Part shown: positions 1 to 5,488 of the stretch, in pieces
Layout of the letters: every line of letters starts with the position of its first letter
Numbering within the stretch: the first letter of the stretch is position 1
Virus record (IMG/VR): IMGVR_UViG_2778261674_000019
Coordinates: 1 to 5,488 of that record
DNA: 5,488 nt
Source of the DNA: a virus
Lineage: Duplodnaviria > Heunggongvirae > Uroviricota > Caudoviricetes
Direction: 5' to 3' (one strand)
Translations under genes and position numbers: made by a program
Notes under the pieces: generated by a model
Databases searched by the model: none
Told to the model about the DNA's origin: nothing
What the model saw: only the letters and a program-made list of their open reading frames with translations

Positions 1-297
1 CCCGCCAGCAGTGCGATGCGCCAGCATTGCCGCAAATACGGAGGCCGGGGAGTCGTAATACGCCAGCAGTGATTCTCCGTGTGGTGTCAGGTAGTGCAAC
101 GCCAGCCCGTGTGGTGTGAAGTCCACGCGGTAGCAGTCGTCTACTGTGAAATAAAGGGTGTCTGCATTCTCCGGTTTTGTGGTGCGTGCTCTGTTGTCAC
201 GACCACGGATGTAGAGATCAAATAATCCCTGAAGAACGGGAGCCAGACGGGTGTCCTGTGTGCGCACCCATCTTGTGAAGTCATGAGCGTCAATCAT
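1..297 (-). CDS. Hypothetical protein, 5' end only (3' end beyond left edge); sits where an antirepressor would in an immI-like module
   Basis: Open - strand frame from ATG at 297..295 to position 1 with no stop (99 codons visible, MIDAHDFTRWVRTQDTRLAPVLQGLFDLYIRGRDN...). SD-like AAAGAGAA about 8 nt upstream. Same frame and strand as the 76-aa gene, 72 nt downstream of its stop. Not in the ORF track, presumably because no stop is in the window. Confidence 0.5.
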   Translation of the reverse strand, partial: MIDAHDFTRWVRTQDTRLAPVLQGLFDLYIRGRDNRARTTKPENADTLYFTVDDCYRVDFTPHGLALHYLTPHGESLLAYYDSPASVFAAMLAHRTAGG

Positions 298-369
298 GCT
301 GCAATTCTCTTTACTACAGATGTGCGAAGGCCTCCCGCCGCAAGGTGCAGGAAAGGCCCGGAACAGGAA

Positions 370-600
370 TTAATGGAGTTTGTTTTGCTGCTGGAAGAGT
401 TGTTGCAGCTCGCGCAGATCATCCGCCAGATAGCTGAAAACAGAGGCGGAATAGATGTTCGATAGCGCGTGGCTGCGCTCATGCAGCATATTGATGTGCA
501 TGATTTGCGCGACGCGTGATGCGCGGAAAAGTCTACGGTTGATTTCAGTCTGGATGTGACGACGCTCCGCGATAGCGCGGTGCTGTTTGCGGTTTGCCAT
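370..600 (-). CDS. Small basic protein (76 aa, R/H/Q-rich), unknown function; sits where icd would in a P1 immI-like module
   Basis: ORF-track ORF with ATG at 600..598 and SD GAAGAGG (rc of 610..616) about 10 nt upstream. No family recognised from the sequence. Confidence 0.6.
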   Translation of the reverse strand: MANRKQHRAIAERRHIQTEINRRLFRASRVAQIMHINMLHERSHALSNIYSASVFSYLADDLRELQQLFQQQNKLH

Positions 601-608
601 GGTGTTTG

Positions 609-660
609 GCCTCTTCGTTTGTGAGTTTTTGGATACTCACCAACCAGAGTTGAGAATCTC
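609..660 (-). promoter_or_regulatory. Translation-initiation region of the 76-aa gene carrying two putative antisense target boxes (b2 CAAACGAAGA overlapping the SD, a2 UUCUCAAC) separated by a small hairpin
   Basis: b2 is rc of 612..621 and is complementary to the 12-nt loop of the structured domain (695..706). a2 is rc of 649..656 and is complementary to the single-stranded stretch at 682..689. Hairpin GTGAG-N10-CTCAC at 621..640. Confidence 0.4.
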
Positions 661-665
661 GGGGT

Positions 666-741
666 GGCGAGACGTACGGGGTTCTCAACACCGGCAAACG
701 AAGAAACCGGCCCGACCGAAGTCGGCCCCGTACGCCCCACC
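666..741 (-). ncRNA. Candidate c4-like antisense RNA domain (~76 nt)
   Basis: On the - strand, GGUGGGGCGUACGGGG (rc of 726..741) pairs with CCCCGUACGUCUCGCC (rc of 666..681) as a 16-bp closing helix with 3 G-U pairs. Inside are a C(UUCG)G tetraloop hairpin (712..725), a CCGG/CCGG stem with 12-nt loop UUUCUUCGUUUG (691..710) and a single-stranded GUUGAGAA (682..689). The loop and linker are complementary to boxes present twice nearby. Strand and exact ends are inferred. Confidence 0.35.
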
Positions 742-770
742 ATAATTCGTGTGCGAAAAAGACGTGGCAA
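742..770 (-). promoter_or_regulatory. Candidate sigma70 promoter, leftward: -35 TTGCCA (rc of 765..770), 17-bp spacer, -10 AATTAT (rc of 742..747)
   Basis: Hexamer match only; 5/6 for -35 and 4/6 for -10. Would start transcription at the 5' side of the structured domain. Confidence 0.25.
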
Positions 771-781
771 TACAGTACGCA

Positions 782-803
782 CAAAAAAACCGCTGGCGCG
801 GTT
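782..803 (-). terminator. Intrinsic terminator for the leftward early operon
   Basis: On the - strand: AACCGC-GCCA-GCGGTT hairpin (6-bp stem, 4-nt loop) followed by a U-tract of 7 in total. On the + strand it is preceded by A7 with no T-run after it, so it is unidirectional. The stem is short, so strength is uncertain. Confidence 0.4.
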
Positions 804-808
804 GTGCG

Positions 809-836
809 CTTCGTTTGTCAGCAGGTTGAGAATCCC
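809..836 (-). promoter_or_regulatory. Upstream copy of the two target boxes (b1 ACAAACGAAG, a1 GAUUCUCAAC) in the 3' region of the early operon
   Basis: Direct repeats of the boxes next to the 76-aa gene start: CTTCGTTTGT at 613..622 and 809..818; GTTGAGAATC at 649..658 and 825..834. Confidence 0.35.
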
Positions 837-862
837 GGCACCCGTTTTATGAGGTGCAGCAG

Positions 863-892
863 AAATGTAACCTGACTGATTGCGGCATGGCA
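863..892 (-). promoter_or_regulatory. Second candidate leftward promoter: -35 TTGCCA (rc of 887..892), ~18-bp spacer, -10 TACATT
   Basis: Hexamer match only. Would drive a transcript containing a1/b1, the terminator-like hairpin, the structured domain and a2/b2. Confidence 0.2.
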
Positions 893-925
893 AGCGGTTT
901 TTTTGTGTGTGCATGCTCTGATTTC

Positions 926-1225
926 TTACTGGTTCAGAAAAAAATCAAAAACCTTGTCAATGCGTTGCAACAGCTCTTGCTGTATTGCTTCCGGCGTTTC
1001 CGGTTCGCCTGGCGCCTCCAATGTCGCGCAGAAATCATCGATTTCATGATGGAGCGTCAGGCGAATGGCAGGAGCCGTGGTTCTGGCGTGCTCCAGCTCA
1101 TCCAGCAATGCCAGCACCGCAGACGGCGAGAGCATTGCGCGAAATGCCAGTAATTTTTGAGGTGTTGCCATTCGTTGCAGGGCAAATGCCAGTTCGCGTA
1201 GCTTCTGGTGGTTGATGGTGCTCAT
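926..1225 (-). CDS. Ead/Ea22-like prophage protein (99 aa)
   Basis: ORF-track ORF. Start ATG overlaps the upstream stop as ATGA. Contains the motif SPSAVLALLDELE, which I recall as characteristic of Ead/Ea22-like proteins of lambdoid prophages; family call is from memory. Confidence 0.6.
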   Translation of the reverse strand: MSTINHQKLRELAFALQRMATPQKLLAFRAMLSPSAVLALLDELEHARTTAPAIRLTLHHEIDDFCATLEAPGEPETPEAIQQELLQRIDKVFDFFLNQ

Positions 1226-1488
1226 GTTCTGGCTTCCTTCAGTAGCTGGTTAAACATGTGAGTAAGTGGATTGCTACACCCGAACGGCATCGGGTTTACG
1301 TGGTAAGAAGCCTGGCCTCCAGTTTTGCGAGCGCGACCACCTGTGCTGCGGTTTGTTCTGATGACTAAGCCGCCGCGCCAAAGTTGGCGTAACTCAGCAT
1401 TAATGGCTGTGGTTGGAGTATTCAGTGCTGCTGCGATTTCTCCGCCGCTACAACCCGGATGGGTAGCGATGTAGTCCAGAATGGTCAT
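1222..1488 (-). CDS. Probable winged-helix DNA-binding protein (88 aa)
   Basis: ORF-track ORF. ATGA start/stop overlap with the upstream gene. N-terminal ILDYIATHPGCSGGEIAAAL...LRQLWRGGLVIR resembles a winged HTH; Gly/Arg-rich basic tail. Confidence 0.6.
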   Translation of the reverse strand: MTILDYIATHPGCSGGEIAAALNTPTTAINAELRQLWRGGLVIRTNRSTGGRARKTGGQASYHVNPMPFGCSNPLTHMFNQLLKEART

Positions 1489-1688
1489 CTGCGTGGCTCC
1501 TGTACCTGTCGGATAAGATTCACCCGCGCCACGTTGGTGGCGCAGAAATAAGTGCCGTCAGTGAGGTAGATGTGGTGTGCATCCTTTTCCGAACGATGTT
1601 TGTCGATAGTGGTAATCAGTCGTTCGTCGACCTCGTATTCGCGCCCTCTGGAGGTAAAGCGAACGACGGGGAAATGCTTAATTGCCAT
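1485..1688 (-). CDS. Hypothetical protein (67 aa)
   Basis: ORF-track ORF with SD AAAGGGGG about 5 nt upstream of ATG 1688; stop overlaps the next start. Confidence 0.6.
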   Translation of the reverse strand: MAIKHFPVVRFTSRGREYEVDERLITTIDKHRSEKDAHHIYLTDGTYFCATNVARVNLIRQVQEPRR

Positions 1689-1711
1689 TGCGCCCCCTTT
1701 GTCCAGTAACC

Positions 1712-2122
1712 CTATGCGTTAAATACGGTGTGTCGGGCGTCATCAATGAATGCAACTTGAGAGCGCTCTATCAGGCGGAGATTTGTCAGAAGCGCTGATT
1801 CCCTTATGGGGTGAGGAGTGATCAGGTATTTGTCCTGTAATCCGGCAATAATGGTGTATCGCTGTAGCTCTGAGCCAATTGTGTAAATAAGGCGTCCGGT
1901 GTTAGATAAATCCAGTTCGGTGACTGGTTGAGTTTTGAAAAGCGTAAGTTCCGCACCCTGTTCTTCGATGATTTTGGCGGCTTCTGCCGTGACTTTTGCG
2001 ACTATCATTGTGTGGGTCGCGACGTCTATATGATTATTTGCTACGGCTTTTTTCGCTACTTCGCTTTCCATCTTTGAAATTTCTTTCAGTGCTCTGATGA
2101 TACCTTCTTCTTTTGCGTGCAT
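1712..2122 (-). CDS. Hypothetical protein (136 aa)
   Basis: ORF-track ORF with SD GGAGAT about 7 nt upstream of ATG 2122. Follows a 93-bp AT-rich gap. No family recognised. Confidence 0.65.
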   Translation of the reverse strand: MHAKEEGIIRALKEISKMESEVAKKAVANNHIDVATHTMIVAKVTAEAAKIIEEQGAELTLFKTQPVTELDLSNTGRLIYTIGSELQRYTIIAGLQDKYLITPHPIRESALLTNLRLIERSQVAFIDDARHTVFNA

Positions 2123-2215
2123 TTTTGTATCTCCGTTATCTGCGTGTGCGAATACCTCCGTTAATACGGATGGTTTTCACGTTTTCTTATTTAATTTGAT
2201 GTTTTATTTGTATCG

Positions 2216-2329
2216 TTATTCACCAGTGAAAAAACGTTCAATCTTTTTTACTGAATGAATAATTCGCATAATCCCAATGGCGCAGGCCACTGAAATAATC
2301 AGAGCAAGCCATGAAATAAATATACTCAT
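2216..2329 (-). CDS. Small single-pass membrane peptide (37 aa, MSIFISWLALIISVACAIGIMRIIHSVKKIERFFTGE), candidate membrane-active toxin or kil-type peptide
   Basis: Hand-translated; below the ORF-track size cutoff. ATG 2329..2327 overlaps the TGA stop of the upstream gene (2326..2328) as ATGA. Hydrophobic residues 3-21, then a basic tail. Confidence 0.4.
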   Translation of the reverse strand: MSIFISWLALIISVACAIGIMRIIHSVKKIERFFTGE

Positions 2330-2568
2330 GCGATATTCCCCAGCTTATACGGTTCAATATGTTCCCCGCATTCTGCGGCACAGATTAGCTCGGAAAGTTC
2401 GTTAAGTGCATCCAGATCATCAGCGTAAAAAGCCACGTCATACAGACTCCGGATTGCCCTGGTCAATGAGTCACGGGCTGCACGTTCAGCATGAGCGCCT
2501 GATGCACTTAAGCGAAAATAAAAACGCTCAAGTGCTTTGTTAATGAGAGTTTTATATTCTTTGCCCAT
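2326..2568 (-). CDS. Hypothetical protein (80 aa)
   Basis: ORF-track ORF with SD AAAGGG upstream of ATG 2568; 11 nt after the previous stop. Confidence 0.6.
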   Translation of the reverse strand: MGKEYKTLINKALERFYFRLSASGAHAERAARDSLTRAIRSLYDVAFYADDLDALNELSELICAAECGEHIEPYKLGNIA

Positions 2569-2579
2569 CGCAACGCCCT

Positions 2580-2867
2580 TTAATCTGCTTTCTGAATTTC
2601 AGCTTCTGAATCCATACAAATAATTTCGATATATGGTTCATCGCCATTAACCTGACGTGCCTTTTCAGCTTCACTAATGATTTCTCGTACGGTCTGGTAC
2701 GGAAGTTCCACAAGCAGTCGCGTGCCGTTCAGATAAACGTAAGTGGCTTCGTTGGCTCCGTTTTTACCCGCCGGAGCCACTCCATCAATAGCGGATGCGC
2801 GTAATAACAGTTCACCGCGAAAATCAATAAAACGGATAAATACACCTTGTGCATGCTCTTTGGTCAT
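2580..2867 (-). CDS. Hypothetical protein (95 aa)
   Basis: ORF-track ORF with SD AGGTGA 3-4 nt upstream of ATG 2867; 10 nt after the previous stop. Confidence 0.6.
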   Translation of the reverse strand: MTKEHAQGVFIRFIDFRGELLLRASAIDGVAPAGKNGANEATYVYLNGTRLLVELPYQTVREIISEAEKARQVNGDEPYIEIICMDSEAEIQKAD

Positions 2868-2877
2868 AAATCACCTG

Positions 2878-3231
2878 TTATAAATCAGTCTGTTTAATAA
2901 AACTCTGTCCACGCAGCAGACGATCAACCGTGCGAAGCGCTTCGTATAATGTGAAATCCTGCCCGAACTGATTGTCGCCGCTGCTTAGAGCAAAAATGCG
3001 GTTTCCAGTAAACGGATTGCGTGGGCATCTGTGAACCACGATTCCAGCCTTCTCAATCAGCCAGGTATGCTCGCCGATTTGTTTTACAGCGTGGCCATCC
3101 GGCGTTGCGTGTGTATCACTCAGGCTGTAGCGGATGTTGCTGCGTGATGCACTGGTAGCGAAACGGTTAGCATGGCGTTCCGCCCCGTTGCGGAAACGTT
3201 GTTGTGAAGAATTACGCTGTTGCTTATTCAT
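2878..3231 (-). CDS. Hypothetical protein (117 aa from ATG 3231; 120 aa if the GTG at 3240 is used), basic Q/R/S-rich N-terminus
   Basis: ORF-track ORF 2878..3240. The in-frame ATG at 3231 has a better SD (GAGGTG about 9 nt upstream). Confidence 0.6.
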   Translation of the reverse strand: MNKQQRNSSQQRFRNGAERHANRFATSASRSNIRYSLSDTHATPDGHAVKQIGEHTWLIEKAGIVVHRCPRNPFTGNRIFALSSGDNQFGQDFTLYEALRTVDRLLRGQSFIKQTDL

Positions 3232-3242
3232 TTTTTGCACCT

Positions 3243-3449
3243 CTACCCGATAAACCAGATGACAAACACCATGATCATTGCCCCAATGGCAGCCGGAAAA
3301 AGACCTCTGGCATAAGCAGTGATGTATTCAACATTGAGAGCCATAAAGCGTTCCTCATACCCTGTTAATTTGCGAAGAAGCCAAATCACTACCACGCCCA
3401 CTTCAAAAAGAACGAGGGTCAAAATGATATTGGTGATGTTGTTGGTCAT
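3243..3449 (-). CDS. Small two-helix membrane protein (68 aa)
   Basis: Internal ATG (3449..3447) of the track ORF 3243..3698; the upstream part of that ORF overlaps the cox-position gene out of frame. Two hydrophobic helices (NIILTLVLFEVGVVVIWLL and LFPAAIGAMIMVFVIWFIG). Starts 10 nt after the previous stop; SD is weak and distant (GAAGG at -17). Confidence 0.5.
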   Translation of the reverse strand: MTNNITNIILTLVLFEVGVVVIWLLRKLTGYEERFMALNVEYITAYARGLFPAAIGAMIMVFVIWFIG

Positions 3450-3459
3450 TTTTGTGTGT

Positions 3460-3981
3460 TTAGTTGCCTTCGCTGCTTTTGAGTCGCTCCAGCTTTGAGC
3501 TTCTACCCATATAAACCCGTTTTCCGTTAACGGTCTGGCAGTCTTCTTTGTCGGCTGGAGAGAACTTTCTTTTCTGGCGGTCATACGTCCAGTAACTTTT
3601 CCAGTTGTGCCATTCTGGGGGCTCGTACTCTGGTAGCTCATCAGCCAACTTGTCCCACTCTTTGGCGTTAAACCACCATACTCCGTCTGAGTTTTCATCT
3701 TCTGGGTTTGTGCGCGTTTTGTGTCCCGGCATTTGACCGCGATGAATGGCTACGCGCAGTGCAGATTTTGTTAGGCCAATATATGCCGCGCCTTTTTCCA
3801 GAGAGCAAAGCCCGGCGATCGGACCATCCAGCCGTAAAGTCGCTCCTTTTTTGTAGGAGCGCTTTTTCTTGTTTTCTTCGTGTTCGTCGTCGTTGGCGGC
3901 ATCAATGGATCCGCTGAGTGTGTCACTTTCCTGAAGTGGTTGGTGGTCAGATAACTCTTTATCGGCAATGAAGTCCCGCAT
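3460..3981 (-). CDS. Excisionase-family HTH DNA-binding protein in the cox/apl position (173 aa)
   Basis: ORF-track ORF with strong SD AAGAGGA about 6 nt upstream of ATG 3981. Central segment GAAYIGLTKSALRVAIHRGQMPGHK...DGVWWFNAKEWDKL resembles Xis/AlpA-type HTH domains. First gene of the operon divergent from the repressor. Confidence 0.65.
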   Translation of the reverse strand: MRDFIADKELSDHQPLQESDTLSGSIDAANDDEHEENKKKRSYKKGATLRLDGPIAGLCSLEKGAAYIGLTKSALRVAIHRGQMPGHKTRTNPEDENSDGVWWFNAKEWDKLADELPEYEPPEWHNWKSYWTYDRQKRKFSPADKEDCQTVNGKRVYMGRSSKLERLKSSEGN

Positions 3982-4084
3982 TTGTTATCCTCTTGCGTTG
4001 GTGCGCTTGTTGCGCCTTGTGATGGTTTGTTTTGGTTTGTTTTCTTCACCGTGTGGTGAAGAGCGAAAAGAGGATACTCATCGT
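3982..4084. promoter_or_regulatory. Divergent lysis/lysogeny switch region (Pe-like and Pc-like promoters with operators)
   Basis: 103-bp gap between divergent start codons. Tandem imperfect repeats TTGGTGCGC/TTGTTGCGC (3998..4015), perfect tandem GGTTTGTTTT x2 (4024..4043), palindrome TCTTCACC-GTGT-GGTGAAGA (4043..4062), and inverted AAGAGGATA SD boxes at each end (3986..3994 rc, 4068..4076). Promoter hexamers not confidently placed. Confidence 0.6.
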
Positions 4085-4426
4085 ATGGTGAACATGTCAA
4101 GAGATTACGCCAAAAAACTAAAGGCGATCAGAAATGCGGAAAAACTTACACAATCTCAGTTTTCGCAAGTAACGGGGGTTTCTGTAGGGACTATAGGAAA
4201 TTATGAGTCTGGATATAAACCTGCGCGAATTGAGGTTGTAGAAAAAGTAATCCAGGTCGAGCGATTCGAAAAATACACTATGTGGATACTTCACGACAAA
4301 ACATTTCCCGCTGCCGGGCAGGTTGCTCCGGCTCTCTCTCTTGATGGCTCTATTCAGTCGGAGGGCGATCAGGTTTCAATCGGCATTACCCAAAAATCAC
4401 CCCGATCAGGCCGCAATGTTGGCTGA
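4085..4426 (+). CDS. P2 C-like immunity repressor, HTH (114 aa)
   Basis: Internal ATG of track ORF 3968..4426, with SD AAGAGGA (4068..4074) 10 nt upstream. Resembles phage P2 repressor C as I recall it (KYTMWILHDK, AGQVAPAL). Directly upstream of and co-directional with int, as in P2. Confidence 0.8.
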   Translation: MVNMSRDYAKKLKAIRNAEKLTQSQFSQVTGVSVGTIGNYESGYKPARIEVVEKVIQVERFEKYTMWILHDKTFPAAGQVAPALSLDGSIQSEGDQVSIGITQKSPRSGRNVG

Positions 4427-4495
4427 CGCTACACATTGAGCGAATTACATCTCGCAAGGAGTGTTTAGTTAATTTATCCGTTGGAGGGGCTAATC

Positions 4496-5488
4496 ATGTC
4501 GATTAAGCAACTCAAAGACGGACGTTATCAGGTTGATGTAAGGCCTCAGGGTGCGGAAGGAAAGCGGATTCGAAAAATCTTCACCCTGAAATCAAAGGCT
4601 CAGGAGTTTGAGAAGTATGTGTTACAGAACTTCCATGACAAGCCATGGCAGGCTAAGCCAGCTGATCAGCGGCGATTATCAGAGTTACTTGATGCGTGGT
4701 GGATGCTTGACGGGCGTAATCAGGCTTACGGGGATAGCTACAGGGTCAGGTTAGGGAAGGTTATTCGTGAAATGGGGGATCCTCGTGCCAGTCAGATGAC
4801 GCGAAAATTTATGCTCGAGTATCGGTCAGAGAAATTACAGGCCGGATTAATGCCGTCCAGTATTAATCGTGACTTATGCGTTCTGTCTACCATGTTCACG
4901 GTGCTGATTGAAGCTGAGGTCTTTCACAACGCGAACCCTGTACGCGGTATACGCAAGCTGAAAGTTCAGAACACAGAGATGGCCTTTCTTTCTGATGATG
5001 AGATTGAGCGGCTTCTTGAGCGGCTGGAGGGGGATGCGCGTCGTGTTGCCATTCTGTGTCTTTCTACTGGTGCCCGATGGAGTGAAGCATCAGAACTACG
5101 TGGAGAGCATATCGTTGGCAACCGGGTTACGTTCTTTAACACCAAAAACGGAAAATCCCGTTCGGTTCCTGTGGCGGATTCGGTTGTGCCTCTGATTAAA
5201 ACCCGTCGAACGGGGTTGTTGTATCAGGTTGATTATCTGAAGTTCCGGGAGATTCTTCAGGAGGTGAAACCGGATTTACCGAAGGGGCAGGCTACGCATG
5301 TCATGCGTCATACATTTGCCACACACTTTATGATGAATGGCGGAAATATTGTTACGTTGCAACGAATCCTGGGGCACGCAACGATTCAGCAAACAATGAC
5401 GTACGCTCATTTTTCGCCGGACTTCTTACAGGACGCGATCAACTTTAATCCGCTGGCTGAAAGTGTCCATAAACTGTCCATCGATTAG
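4496..5488 (+). CDS. int: Tyrosine recombinase, phage P2 Int family (330 aa)
   Basis: ATG at 4496 with SD GGAGGGG 6 nt upstream; the track's TTG at 4481 is less likely. Strong resemblance to P2 Int (MSIKQLKDGRYQVDVRP..., ILCLSTGARWSEA, HVMRHTFATHFMMNGGNIVTLQRILGH, TMTYAHF with the catalytic Tyr). Stop TAG is the last codon of the window. Confidence 0.95.
   Translation: MSIKQLKDGRYQVDVRPQGAEGKRIRKIFTLKSKAQEFEKYVLQNFHDKPWQAKPADQRRLSELLDAWWMLDGRNQAYGDSYRVRLGKVIREMGDPRASQMTRKFMLEYRSEKLQAGLMPSSINRDLCVLSTMFTVLIEAEVFHNANPVRGIRKLKVQNTEMAFLSDDEIERLLERLEGDARRVAILCLSTGARWSEASELRGEHIVGNRVTFFNTKNGKSRSVPVADSVVPLIKTRRTGLLYQVDYLKFREILQEVKPDLPKGQATHVMRHTFATHFMMNGGNIVTLQRILGHATIQQTMTYAHFSPDFLQDAINFNPLAESVHKLSID

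Follow-up and report, generated by a model that had tools for sequence, protein, structure and literature searches.

A P4-type IsrK/C4 RNA cassette with an epsilon-family gene in the early operon of a P88-like prophage: probable role in immunity and anti-immunity

Organization of the locus

We analysed a 5,488-nucleotide (nt) stretch of viral DNA (IMG/VR record IMGVR_UViG_2778261674_000019, positions 1 to 5,488; hereafter the window), which corresponds to the immunity and early end of a P2-family E. coli prophage. Its left end carries, on the minus strand, a promoter, the isrK RNA, an intrinsic terminator, the C4 antisense RNA, and the gene of a 76-amino-acid (aa) protein of the P4 epsilon family, followed by an open reading frame (ORF) that runs off the left edge. 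The coordinates are summarized in Table 1. The segment ~340..908 on the minus strand is likely to be a cassette of the P4/P1 type that is complete in itself and serves immunity and anti-immunity; it lies in the early operon of a prophage similar to P88 (Xuanwuvirus, P2 family) and would work as proposed below.

An original prediction, made from the letters of the sequence, had described a two-gene unit behind its own control region at this end of the window, and its layout was found as described. The basic ORF rich in Arg, His, and Gln is present (R10, H6, Q8; pI 11.2; net charge +6), with its stop codon at 372..370. The second ORF starts 72 nt further on at ATG 297..295 and is open for 99 codons. 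The two ORFs are in the same frame because 600 − 297 = 303, and the left ORF had escaped the ORF list only because that list leaves out frames truncated by an end of the sequence. The separate control region is likewise there, with the hairpin and U-run of the terminator followed by about 200 nt of untranslated sequence.

Table 1. Features of the window, with strand and supporting evidence.
Feature	Position	Strand	Evidence or remark
Cassette right border / upstream arm of inverted repeat	890..910	-	repeat I1; three-way alignment
Sigma-70-like isrK promoter	864..893	-	TTGCCA, 18 nt, TACATT; predicted start ~857
isrK RNA (seqA / a1-b1 element)	783..857	-	Rfam RF01394, 62 bits (gathering 50), full length
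a1 site in isrK	~825..837	-	upstream copy of C4 target; repeats D1, D2, I4, and I6 cover a1/b1
b1 site in isrK	809..817	-	upstream copy of C4 target
Intrinsic terminator, 3' end of isrK	781..803	-	AACCGCGCCAGCGGTT + U-run; hairpin 803..788
C4 antisense RNA (P4 CI RNA counterpart)	660..747	-	Rfam RF01695, 79.2 bits (gathering 45)
C4 b' (hairpin-2 loop)	695..704	-	exposed segment UCUUCGUUUG
C4 a' (3' junction)	677..689	-	exposed segment GUUGAGAA
a2 target site	649..662	-	GAUUCUCAAC, complementary to C4 a'; repeats D2, I2
b2 target site	610..621	-	CAAACGAAGA at 621..612; repeat I5
76-aa epsilon-family ('derepression') gene	370..600	-	PF25738; PHROG 3688 full length; coding selection
GC-rich hairpin without U-run, in 72-nt spacer	328..359	-	at or next to cassette left border
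Left ORF (orf129), first 99 codons of 129-aa gene	1..297	-	open to window edge; PHROG 3237
Cox-family gene	3460..3981	-	small early genes then continue down to 926
P2 C-type repressor gene	4091..4426	+	HTH_3; 35% identity to P2 C, E 1e-22
Integrase gene	runs to 5488	+	

IsrK and C4 RNAs and their target sites

The C4 match, like that of isrK, is full length (model positions 1–87 of 87). The long stem of C4 pairs 665..681 with 726..742 (repeat I3), and C4 alone folds at −48.6 kcal/mol with a z score of −4.67. The promoter ends 6 nt upstream of isrK and is kept in 36 distinct relatives; in distant loci it takes the form TTGCA/C, ~17 nt, TATATT. Promoter-like hexamers (TTGCCT ... TATAGT) also stand directly upstream of the isrK match in P4, at the same position as the promoter of the window.

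The isrK sequence contains GAUUCUCAAC ... CAAACGAAG (sites a1 and b1), on the same strand as C4, and the leader of the 76-aa gene carries GAUUCUCAAC ... CAAACGAAGAGG (sites a2 and b2). The b' segment of C4 is 100% complementary to b2 over 10 nt (repeat I5) and to b1 over 9 nt (repeat I6), and a' pairs with both a1 and a2. An independent repeat finder returned the same pairs (D1, D2, I2, I4, I5, and I6). Site b2 (621..612) overlaps the Shine-Dalgarno sequence GAAGAGG (616..610) of the 76-aa gene.

We compared 84 loci, namely the window, three annotated relatives, and 80 viral contigs with a gene for the 76-aa protein. isrK and C4 lie directly upstream of the 76-aa gene in every one of them. Eleven real specificity (loop) types were found in this set, together with an odd one in locus L044. 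All 11 show perfect complementarity of C4 to both the isrK site and the ribosome-binding site (RBS), over at least 9 nt for b' and at least 7 nt for a'; non-cognate combinations average just 4.5 nt (b') and 4.0 nt (a'). Moreover, the a and b modules reassort among types. Six distant loci, whose epsilon-like proteins are 26–45% identical, each have a type of their own with the same three-way match, and C4 ends 56–57 nt before the ATG in these loci. P4 contributes one further type, which brings the total to ~18. The specificity types, and not the loci, are the independent evidence because the 84 loci are close relatives.

The covariation across ~18 types is strong sequence evidence that the antisense interaction is functional and its specificity exchangeable, as it is between P1 and P7. 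Control by an antisense RNA had been guessed at in the original prediction, and the full-length C4 and isrK with P1-like a1/b1 and a2/b2 sites bear the guess out; these comparisons strongly support antisense control of the 76-aa gene. In the predicted fold of the read-through leader (857..585; −108 kcal/mol, z −4.69), a1/b1 of isrK is paired with b'/a' of C4. This fold resembles the inactive 'structure A' described for isrK of Gifsy-1, which is silent in translation (PMC4825925).

The odd type belongs to an IMG/VR contig. A 17-nt insertion in the C4 of L044 adds a second CCGG-flanked loop, CUUUGCUCU, which is of another type, before the cognate CUUGUGUAG; this C4 could be a recombinant or an assembly chimera.

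The 76-aa epsilon-family protein

The 76-aa protein matched the Pfam family PF25738 'Derepression' with 31.4 bits (gathering 27) over residues 12–67. P4 epsilon, the archetype of the family, matched the same model with 170 bits over positions 1–95. BLASTP aligned the two proteins with 29% identity over 66 residues (E 1e-8), and the motifs EINRRL.RA and (F/L)SY(L/I)A(D/E)D(L/I), the latter as FSYLADDL, are common to both. Public records name close homologues 'derepression protein'. The family is small, because a profile search among 1.84 billion representatives gave only 22 matches at E ≤0.001. Besides Derepression, a Pfam scan at E up to 0.1 gave one weak chance match, and searches of the PDB by sequence, NCBIfam, and PADLOC gave no hit. 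The AlphaFold model is a two-helix hairpin with a predicted local distance difference test score (pLDDT) of 86.

Among 34 distinct alleles, 58% of the single-base codon differences are synonymous in the 76-aa frame vs 18% and 30% in the other two frames. These values indicate that the 76-aa frame is under purifying coding selection.

The element that carries the 76-aa gene also encodes a repressor of the P2 C family. Because P4 epsilon reportedly binds the C repressor of P2 and relieves repression of the helper, as Liu et al. are said to have found in 1997 and 1998, it is natural to infer that the 76-aa protein inactivates the phage's own P2-type C, and we regard it as a candidate antirepressor. 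The original prediction had suggested that the two proteins might be a new antirepressor or host-takeover pair. Both belong to known families, namely PHROG 3688 and PF25738 for the 76-aa protein and PHROG 3237 for the left ORF. The antirepressor idea remains plausible for the 76-aa protein through its membership of the Derepression family and fails for the left ORF. ANT, KilA-N, and Bro domains and informative folds were sought in both proteins using Pfam and structure models, and none was found.

Borders and mobility of the cassette

In a three-way alignment, homology between the window and P88 extends from ~908 to ~292 and homology between the window and the phage Chuche from ~340 to 1. From these borders and from the contexts in Chuche, 520873, and PhiR46_1, the sequences indicate that the unit consists of the promoter, isrK, C4, and the epsilon-like gene (~340..908, ~570 bp) and that it is mobile between contexts. 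Its insertion site in the early operon of this P88-like prophage is directly in front of orf129, gpA, parM, and a partition gene. The spacer, with its hairpin at or next to the left border, folds as a whole with a z score of only −1.5.

The left ORF is 129 aa at full length in relatives. Its stop codon overlaps the start of gpA, the replication endonuclease gene, by 4 nt in L001, L003, and Chuche, the closest relative included; P88 has a 6-nt gap instead. ParM and the partition gene follow gpA. In Chuche, the orf129-gpA pair stands directly after the small early genes and lacks the epsilon-like gene, and no isrK or C4 was detected there even at Rfam E values up to 1. Since orf129 lies directly before gpA, also in the cassette-free Chuche, the sequence comparison places it in the replication module and not in the cassette. 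The two-gene unit of the original prediction is thereby dissolved, as the left ORF goes with the gpA replication module and occurs without the control region.

The same data bear on a module of the P1 immI type, in which the 76-aa protein would inhibit cell division like Icd, and its translation would be required for expression of a downstream antirepressor, the left ORF in the role of Ant. The RNA layout annotated in P1 (a1/b1, C4, a2/b2, first ORF) matches the window, and the first ORFs are near each other in size (76 vs 73 aa). However, the 76-aa protein gave no alignment with Icd, orf129 showed no similarity to Ant1 (E 0.23 over 22 residues), and Pfam showed no Icd, ANT, KilA-N, or Bro domain in either. 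Furthermore, the two ORFs do not overlap and are separated by a 72-nt spacer with a hairpin, orf129 is found directly before gpA in a cassette-free phage, and the gene in the same slot of P88 is only 23% identical. The sequence comparisons largely refute such a module, and we hold it to be highly improbable. The analogy with icd and ant of P1 that had been drawn earlier thus stands for the RNA layout and the position; it does not extend to the proteins, as the 76-aa protein is not Icd-like and the left ORF is not Ant-like.

In the distant relatives, the cassette always lies just ahead of a gene for replication initiation (gpA or a Toprim primase), and the order C4, epsilon-like gene, replication initiator is the same as in P4. 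These neighbours, present in every context, are consistent with a P4-like lock that acts mainly on replication and superinfection. C4 would then keep gpA and the partition genes off in the lysogen and in an incoming homo-immune phage, and the 76-aa gene would be a mere leader against Rho termination, like kil/eta of P4. The epsilon-like proteins do not covary with C specificity, and translation of the first ORFs after P4 seqC reportedly controls termination, a result attributed to Forti et al. in 1999; both points count for this alternative. However, a mere leader peptide would need neither the purifying selection seen on the 76-aa sequence nor the motifs kept with P4 epsilon across 25–45% identity. 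We consider it unlikely that the replication lock is the main role, and note that the replication-lock and antirepressor roles are compatible and not mutually exclusive.

Two further phages show other states of the locus. Phage 520873 (L101, Xuanwuvirus) has neither the RNAs nor the epsilon-like gene at 2507..2621, and ~40 nt of the 3' end of the gene plus the spacer remain. The remnant resembles a deletion scar, and the cassette may be dispensable or recently lost in this phage. PhiR46_1 (L102), an unrelated 46-kb phage, carries isrK and C4 (2484..2673, minus strand) before three other small ORFs, one of which is annotated as a putative antirepressor; the same RNA lock is thus joined to a different cargo.

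Proposed working of the cassette

In the proposed working, the promoter at 893..864 would make IsrK, and most transcripts would end at the isrK terminator. Some read-through transcripts would carry C4, which would be cut out as a stable RNA of ~80 nt, by analogy with P1 C4 and P4 CI. The b' and a' segments of C4 would pair with b2 and a2 on the read-through mRNA, and translation of the 76-aa gene would be blocked because b2 overlaps its Shine-Dalgarno sequence. The untranslated RNA would be expected to terminate early via Rho, as in P1 and P4, so that orf129 and gpA would also be off. IsrK could pair with C4 because it carries the identical site pair a1/b1, and such pairing, in cis on the read-through RNA or in trans from the short RNA, would shift the balance towards translation. 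A shift of this kind by IsrK was shown for Gifsy-1 (PMC4825925). Once made, the 76-aa epsilon-family protein would bind the P2-type C repressor, and the early promoter would be derepressed.

Several points weigh against this working. The RNAs, promoter, terminator, complementarities with their covariation, protein family, synteny with P4, and borders come from the computations themselves; RNA processing, the translational block, polarity, and C binding are carried over from homologous systems. The match to P4 epsilon is remote, as the 29% identity extends over 66 residues and the Pfam score is 4 bits above the threshold, and when the 76-aa model was compared with BFVD, nothing but generic helical hairpins came up, none of them at E ≤0.001. 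If the 84 loci rather than the ~18 types were counted, their close relatedness would also have to be set against it. No LexA box lies in the cassette and no induction signal was identified, yet mitomycin C was used to obtain P88. Another promoter-like site, at 770..742, is a further difficulty; it was not adopted because transcription would begin within the C4 stem. Finally, the C repressors of the window, PhiR44_2, P88, and CM151354 are only 33–41% identical to each other, and the epsilon-like proteins of the same four phages are 89–96% identical. With the epsilon-like protein conserved and C divergent, any binding to C would have to use the conserved C-terminal part and not the specificity region.

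As separate observations, the four C repressors share the C-terminal motif KY..W....P..GQ(I/V)(A/V/S)P(A/L)L, and the candidate antirepressor is thus conserved across C-heteroimmune phages (the window, L001, L002, and L003).

Near-identical epsilon-like proteins beside very different C repressors would also be expected if the protein acted on the repressors of other resident P2-family prophages, or against P4-like satellites, with the C4 types mediating cross-immunity between helper and satellite. P4 turns its homologous protein against a heterologous prophage, and Barquist et al. suggested that IsrK-C4 in prophages may serve as protection against satellites (PMC3632133). However, none of the 17 phage types found matches the P4 type, and we regard this alternative as very unlikely. 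Inactivation of the phage's own C by the 76-aa protein, gated by IsrK and C4, remains the reading that we prefer.

The promoter and terminator are also linked by a 21-nt inverted repeat with 90% complementarity, one arm of which (890..910) includes the −35 hexamer and the other of which (777..797) comprises the 3' half of the terminator and its U-tract. When RNA 925..776, which represents a transcript coming in from the early operon, was folded, the arms were paired and the terminator hairpin was absent (−54.8 kcal/mol, z −5.17). This model suggests that the 890..910 arm is a candidate antiterminator, by which read-through would be specific to transcripts from the early promoter. The upstream sequence AAAACCGCTTGC is kept in distant relatives and is missing from P4.

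A broader proposal can be offered tentatively. The RNA immunity of P4 and epsilon might form one mobile cassette that is also found in P2-family helpers, where it would gate their own antirepressor and replication genes. The interchangeable a/b types would then be a second, C-independent layer of immunity that could mediate helper/satellite cross-immunity or cross-induction, and transcripts that start at the early promoter might get past the isrK terminator by means of the 910..890 / 797..777 pairing, a form of promoter-specific antitermination. We see this proposal as possible but less likely than not.

Comparison with known immunity systems

The P4 immunity region comprises the promoter PLE, seqA, the CI RNA, seqC, kil/eta, epsilon, orf151, and alpha. 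It is the closest model for the window, rather than P1 immI. isrK was equated with seqA, and C4 with CI, by Barquist et al. (PMC3632133) and Hershko-Shalev et al. (PMC4825925). The same RNA families occur in P4 in the same order (isrK/seqA at 8692..8615, C4/CI at 8507..8420), the loops of CI have two complementary sites, one upstream and the other downstream, where it covers the first ORF's RBS, and an epsilon-family protein and then a replication gene follow downstream. In contrast to P4, the epsilon-like gene of the window comes directly after C4 (56–59 nt) with no kil/eta ORFs, and its protein is 76 aa vs 95 aa, with 29% identity. The next gene is unrelated to orf151 (no similarity was found between orf129 and orf151), and the replication gene encodes a P2-type gpA nickase instead of the alpha primase. 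The host also differs: it is a complete P2-family phage of 33–37 kb that encodes a C repressor itself, and this repressor is for that reason the presumed target.

With immI of P1 and P7 (c4, icd, ant1/2), the window shares the C4 RNA, the arrangement of sites, and types set by covariation of loops and targets. The P1 record annotates a1, b1, c4, a2, b2, and icd in this order. The Rfam models C4 and c4-a1b1 match P1, and isrK stays below the threshold (35 bits). The proteins are unrelated, the c4 promoter of P1 carries a C1 operator, and the P1 a1/b1 element has no annotated terminator, in which respects P1 differs from the window.

The isrK, orf45 (STnc1160), and anrP genes of Salmonella Gifsy-1 (PMC4825925) resemble the window in that isrK has its own promoter and a leaky terminator, the read-through mRNA is silent, isrK pairs with a downstream C4-like segment, and the output is an antirepressor, which in the window is a candidate. 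Gifsy-1 differs in its lambdoid host and in its output, AnrP, which is reached via a small upstream ORF that overlaps the RNA. In the window, the first ORF after C4 is the candidate antirepressor itself and replication genes come next.

The tum locus of phage 186 had been proposed earlier as another parallel. Both would be antirepressor modules (a candidate in the window) in a P2-family phage, outside the main early genes. The parallel breaks down on the control, which is by RNA and not by LexA, and on the protein. A search of the window for LexA boxes (CTGT-N8-ACAG, at most one mismatch) gave one hit at 5054, inside int, which is at the chance level, and the 76-aa protein has no Tum/DinI-like domain because Derepression is its sole Pfam family.

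Textbooks present P2 as the non-inducible temperate phage and P4 as the satellite that forces it out of lysogeny via epsilon. All components of the cassette come from described families (C4 and isrK in Rfam, Derepression in Pfam), and the architecture is that of the P4 immunity region. What is found here is that complete P2-family phages also carry a true homologue of epsilon, placed behind an IsrK/C4 lock of the P4 type. It offers a candidate mechanism by which P88-like prophages may escape from repression, and it suggests where the helper-derepression function of P4 came from, or went to. The locus is therefore relevant to the evolutionary relationship of P2 and P4 and to annotation, and the many a/b types are a ready set of orthogonal antisense/target pairs. 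Within the literature library that we searched, no paper describing this RNA/epsilon-like architecture in P2-family phages was found.

Annotation of the region

A 206-aa ORF at 294..914 (minus strand), annotated as a protein in PhiR44_2, was rejected as a gene. We take it to be spurious because it runs across isrK, the terminator, C4, and, in another frame, most of the 76-aa gene, where no coding selection acts on its frame. The ORF is open in 82 of the 84 relatives, which is probably an artefact of the conservation of the RNA sequence. The Pfam family PF10554 'Phage_ASH' is matched by the obsolete 'cI' ORF of P4 (L004, 8329..8521; E 4e-16), and the 206-aa ORF of the window (654..869, minus strand) matches profile positions 1–79 with an E value of 7e-4, below the threshold. 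P4 epsilon matches PF25738 only and not PF10554. The 'Ash' family thus appears to model what is obtained by translating the isrK-C4-seqC RNA region conceptually. In a survey of P4-like elements (PMC8628076), PF10554 'Ash' served as the marker of epsilon, and delta alone among the P4-specific genes was said to have clear homologues in P2-like phages. Most records in the collections that we examined leave both RNA genes of the spacer unannotated.

The orf129 family is narrow, with 20 clusters whose stated organism names are all E. coli. Searches of Pfam, NCBIfam, PADLOC, and the PDB gave no match for orf129, and its single-sequence model (pLDDT 70) gave nothing significant against the PDB. Homologues of orf129 (P0121–P0135) are labelled 'inositol monophosphatase' in NCBI and UniRef; at 129 aa and with no Pfam domain, they very likely carry a propagated mis-annotation.

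The gene in this slot of P88 is a different one, of 121 aa, and it matches DUF5405, the family of P2 Orf83, with an E value of 0.076, below the threshold. A gene in the same slot of a distant relative also matches DUF5405 weakly. Orf83 precedes A in P2, and orf129 has this position before gpA in common with it. A short BLAST match between orf129 and P2 Orf83 had an E value of 0.003, and hhalign gave a probability of 1.4%. Homology of orf129 to P2 Orf83 was not accepted, as the direct comparisons are not significant.

Phage context

The phages nearest to the window are PhiR44_2 and the P88 group (Xuanwuvirus, Peduoviridae). Positions 1–1000 of the window have partial matches in 1423 of the 5426 complete E. 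coli genomes, about a quarter, and at least 80% of this segment is covered in 261 of the 1423. P88 was recovered after mitomycin C treatment and phiSM was released spontaneously (PMC5285337, PMC6456863).

The divergent promoter region between cox and C (4023..4043, 4046..4092) contains two tandem copies of TGGTTTGTTTT, which are a candidate C operator. No copies of this repeat above chance were found near the isrK promoter. The same region has a 15-nt direct repeat, TCACCGTGTGGTGAA / TCATCGTATGGTGAA, spaced 32 nt apart, which is also a candidate C operator. The Cox-family protein of the window is 173 aa long, and its Cox domain (residues 58–129) follows an acidic N-terminal extension; the Cox of P2 has 91 aa and that of one close relative 108 aa.

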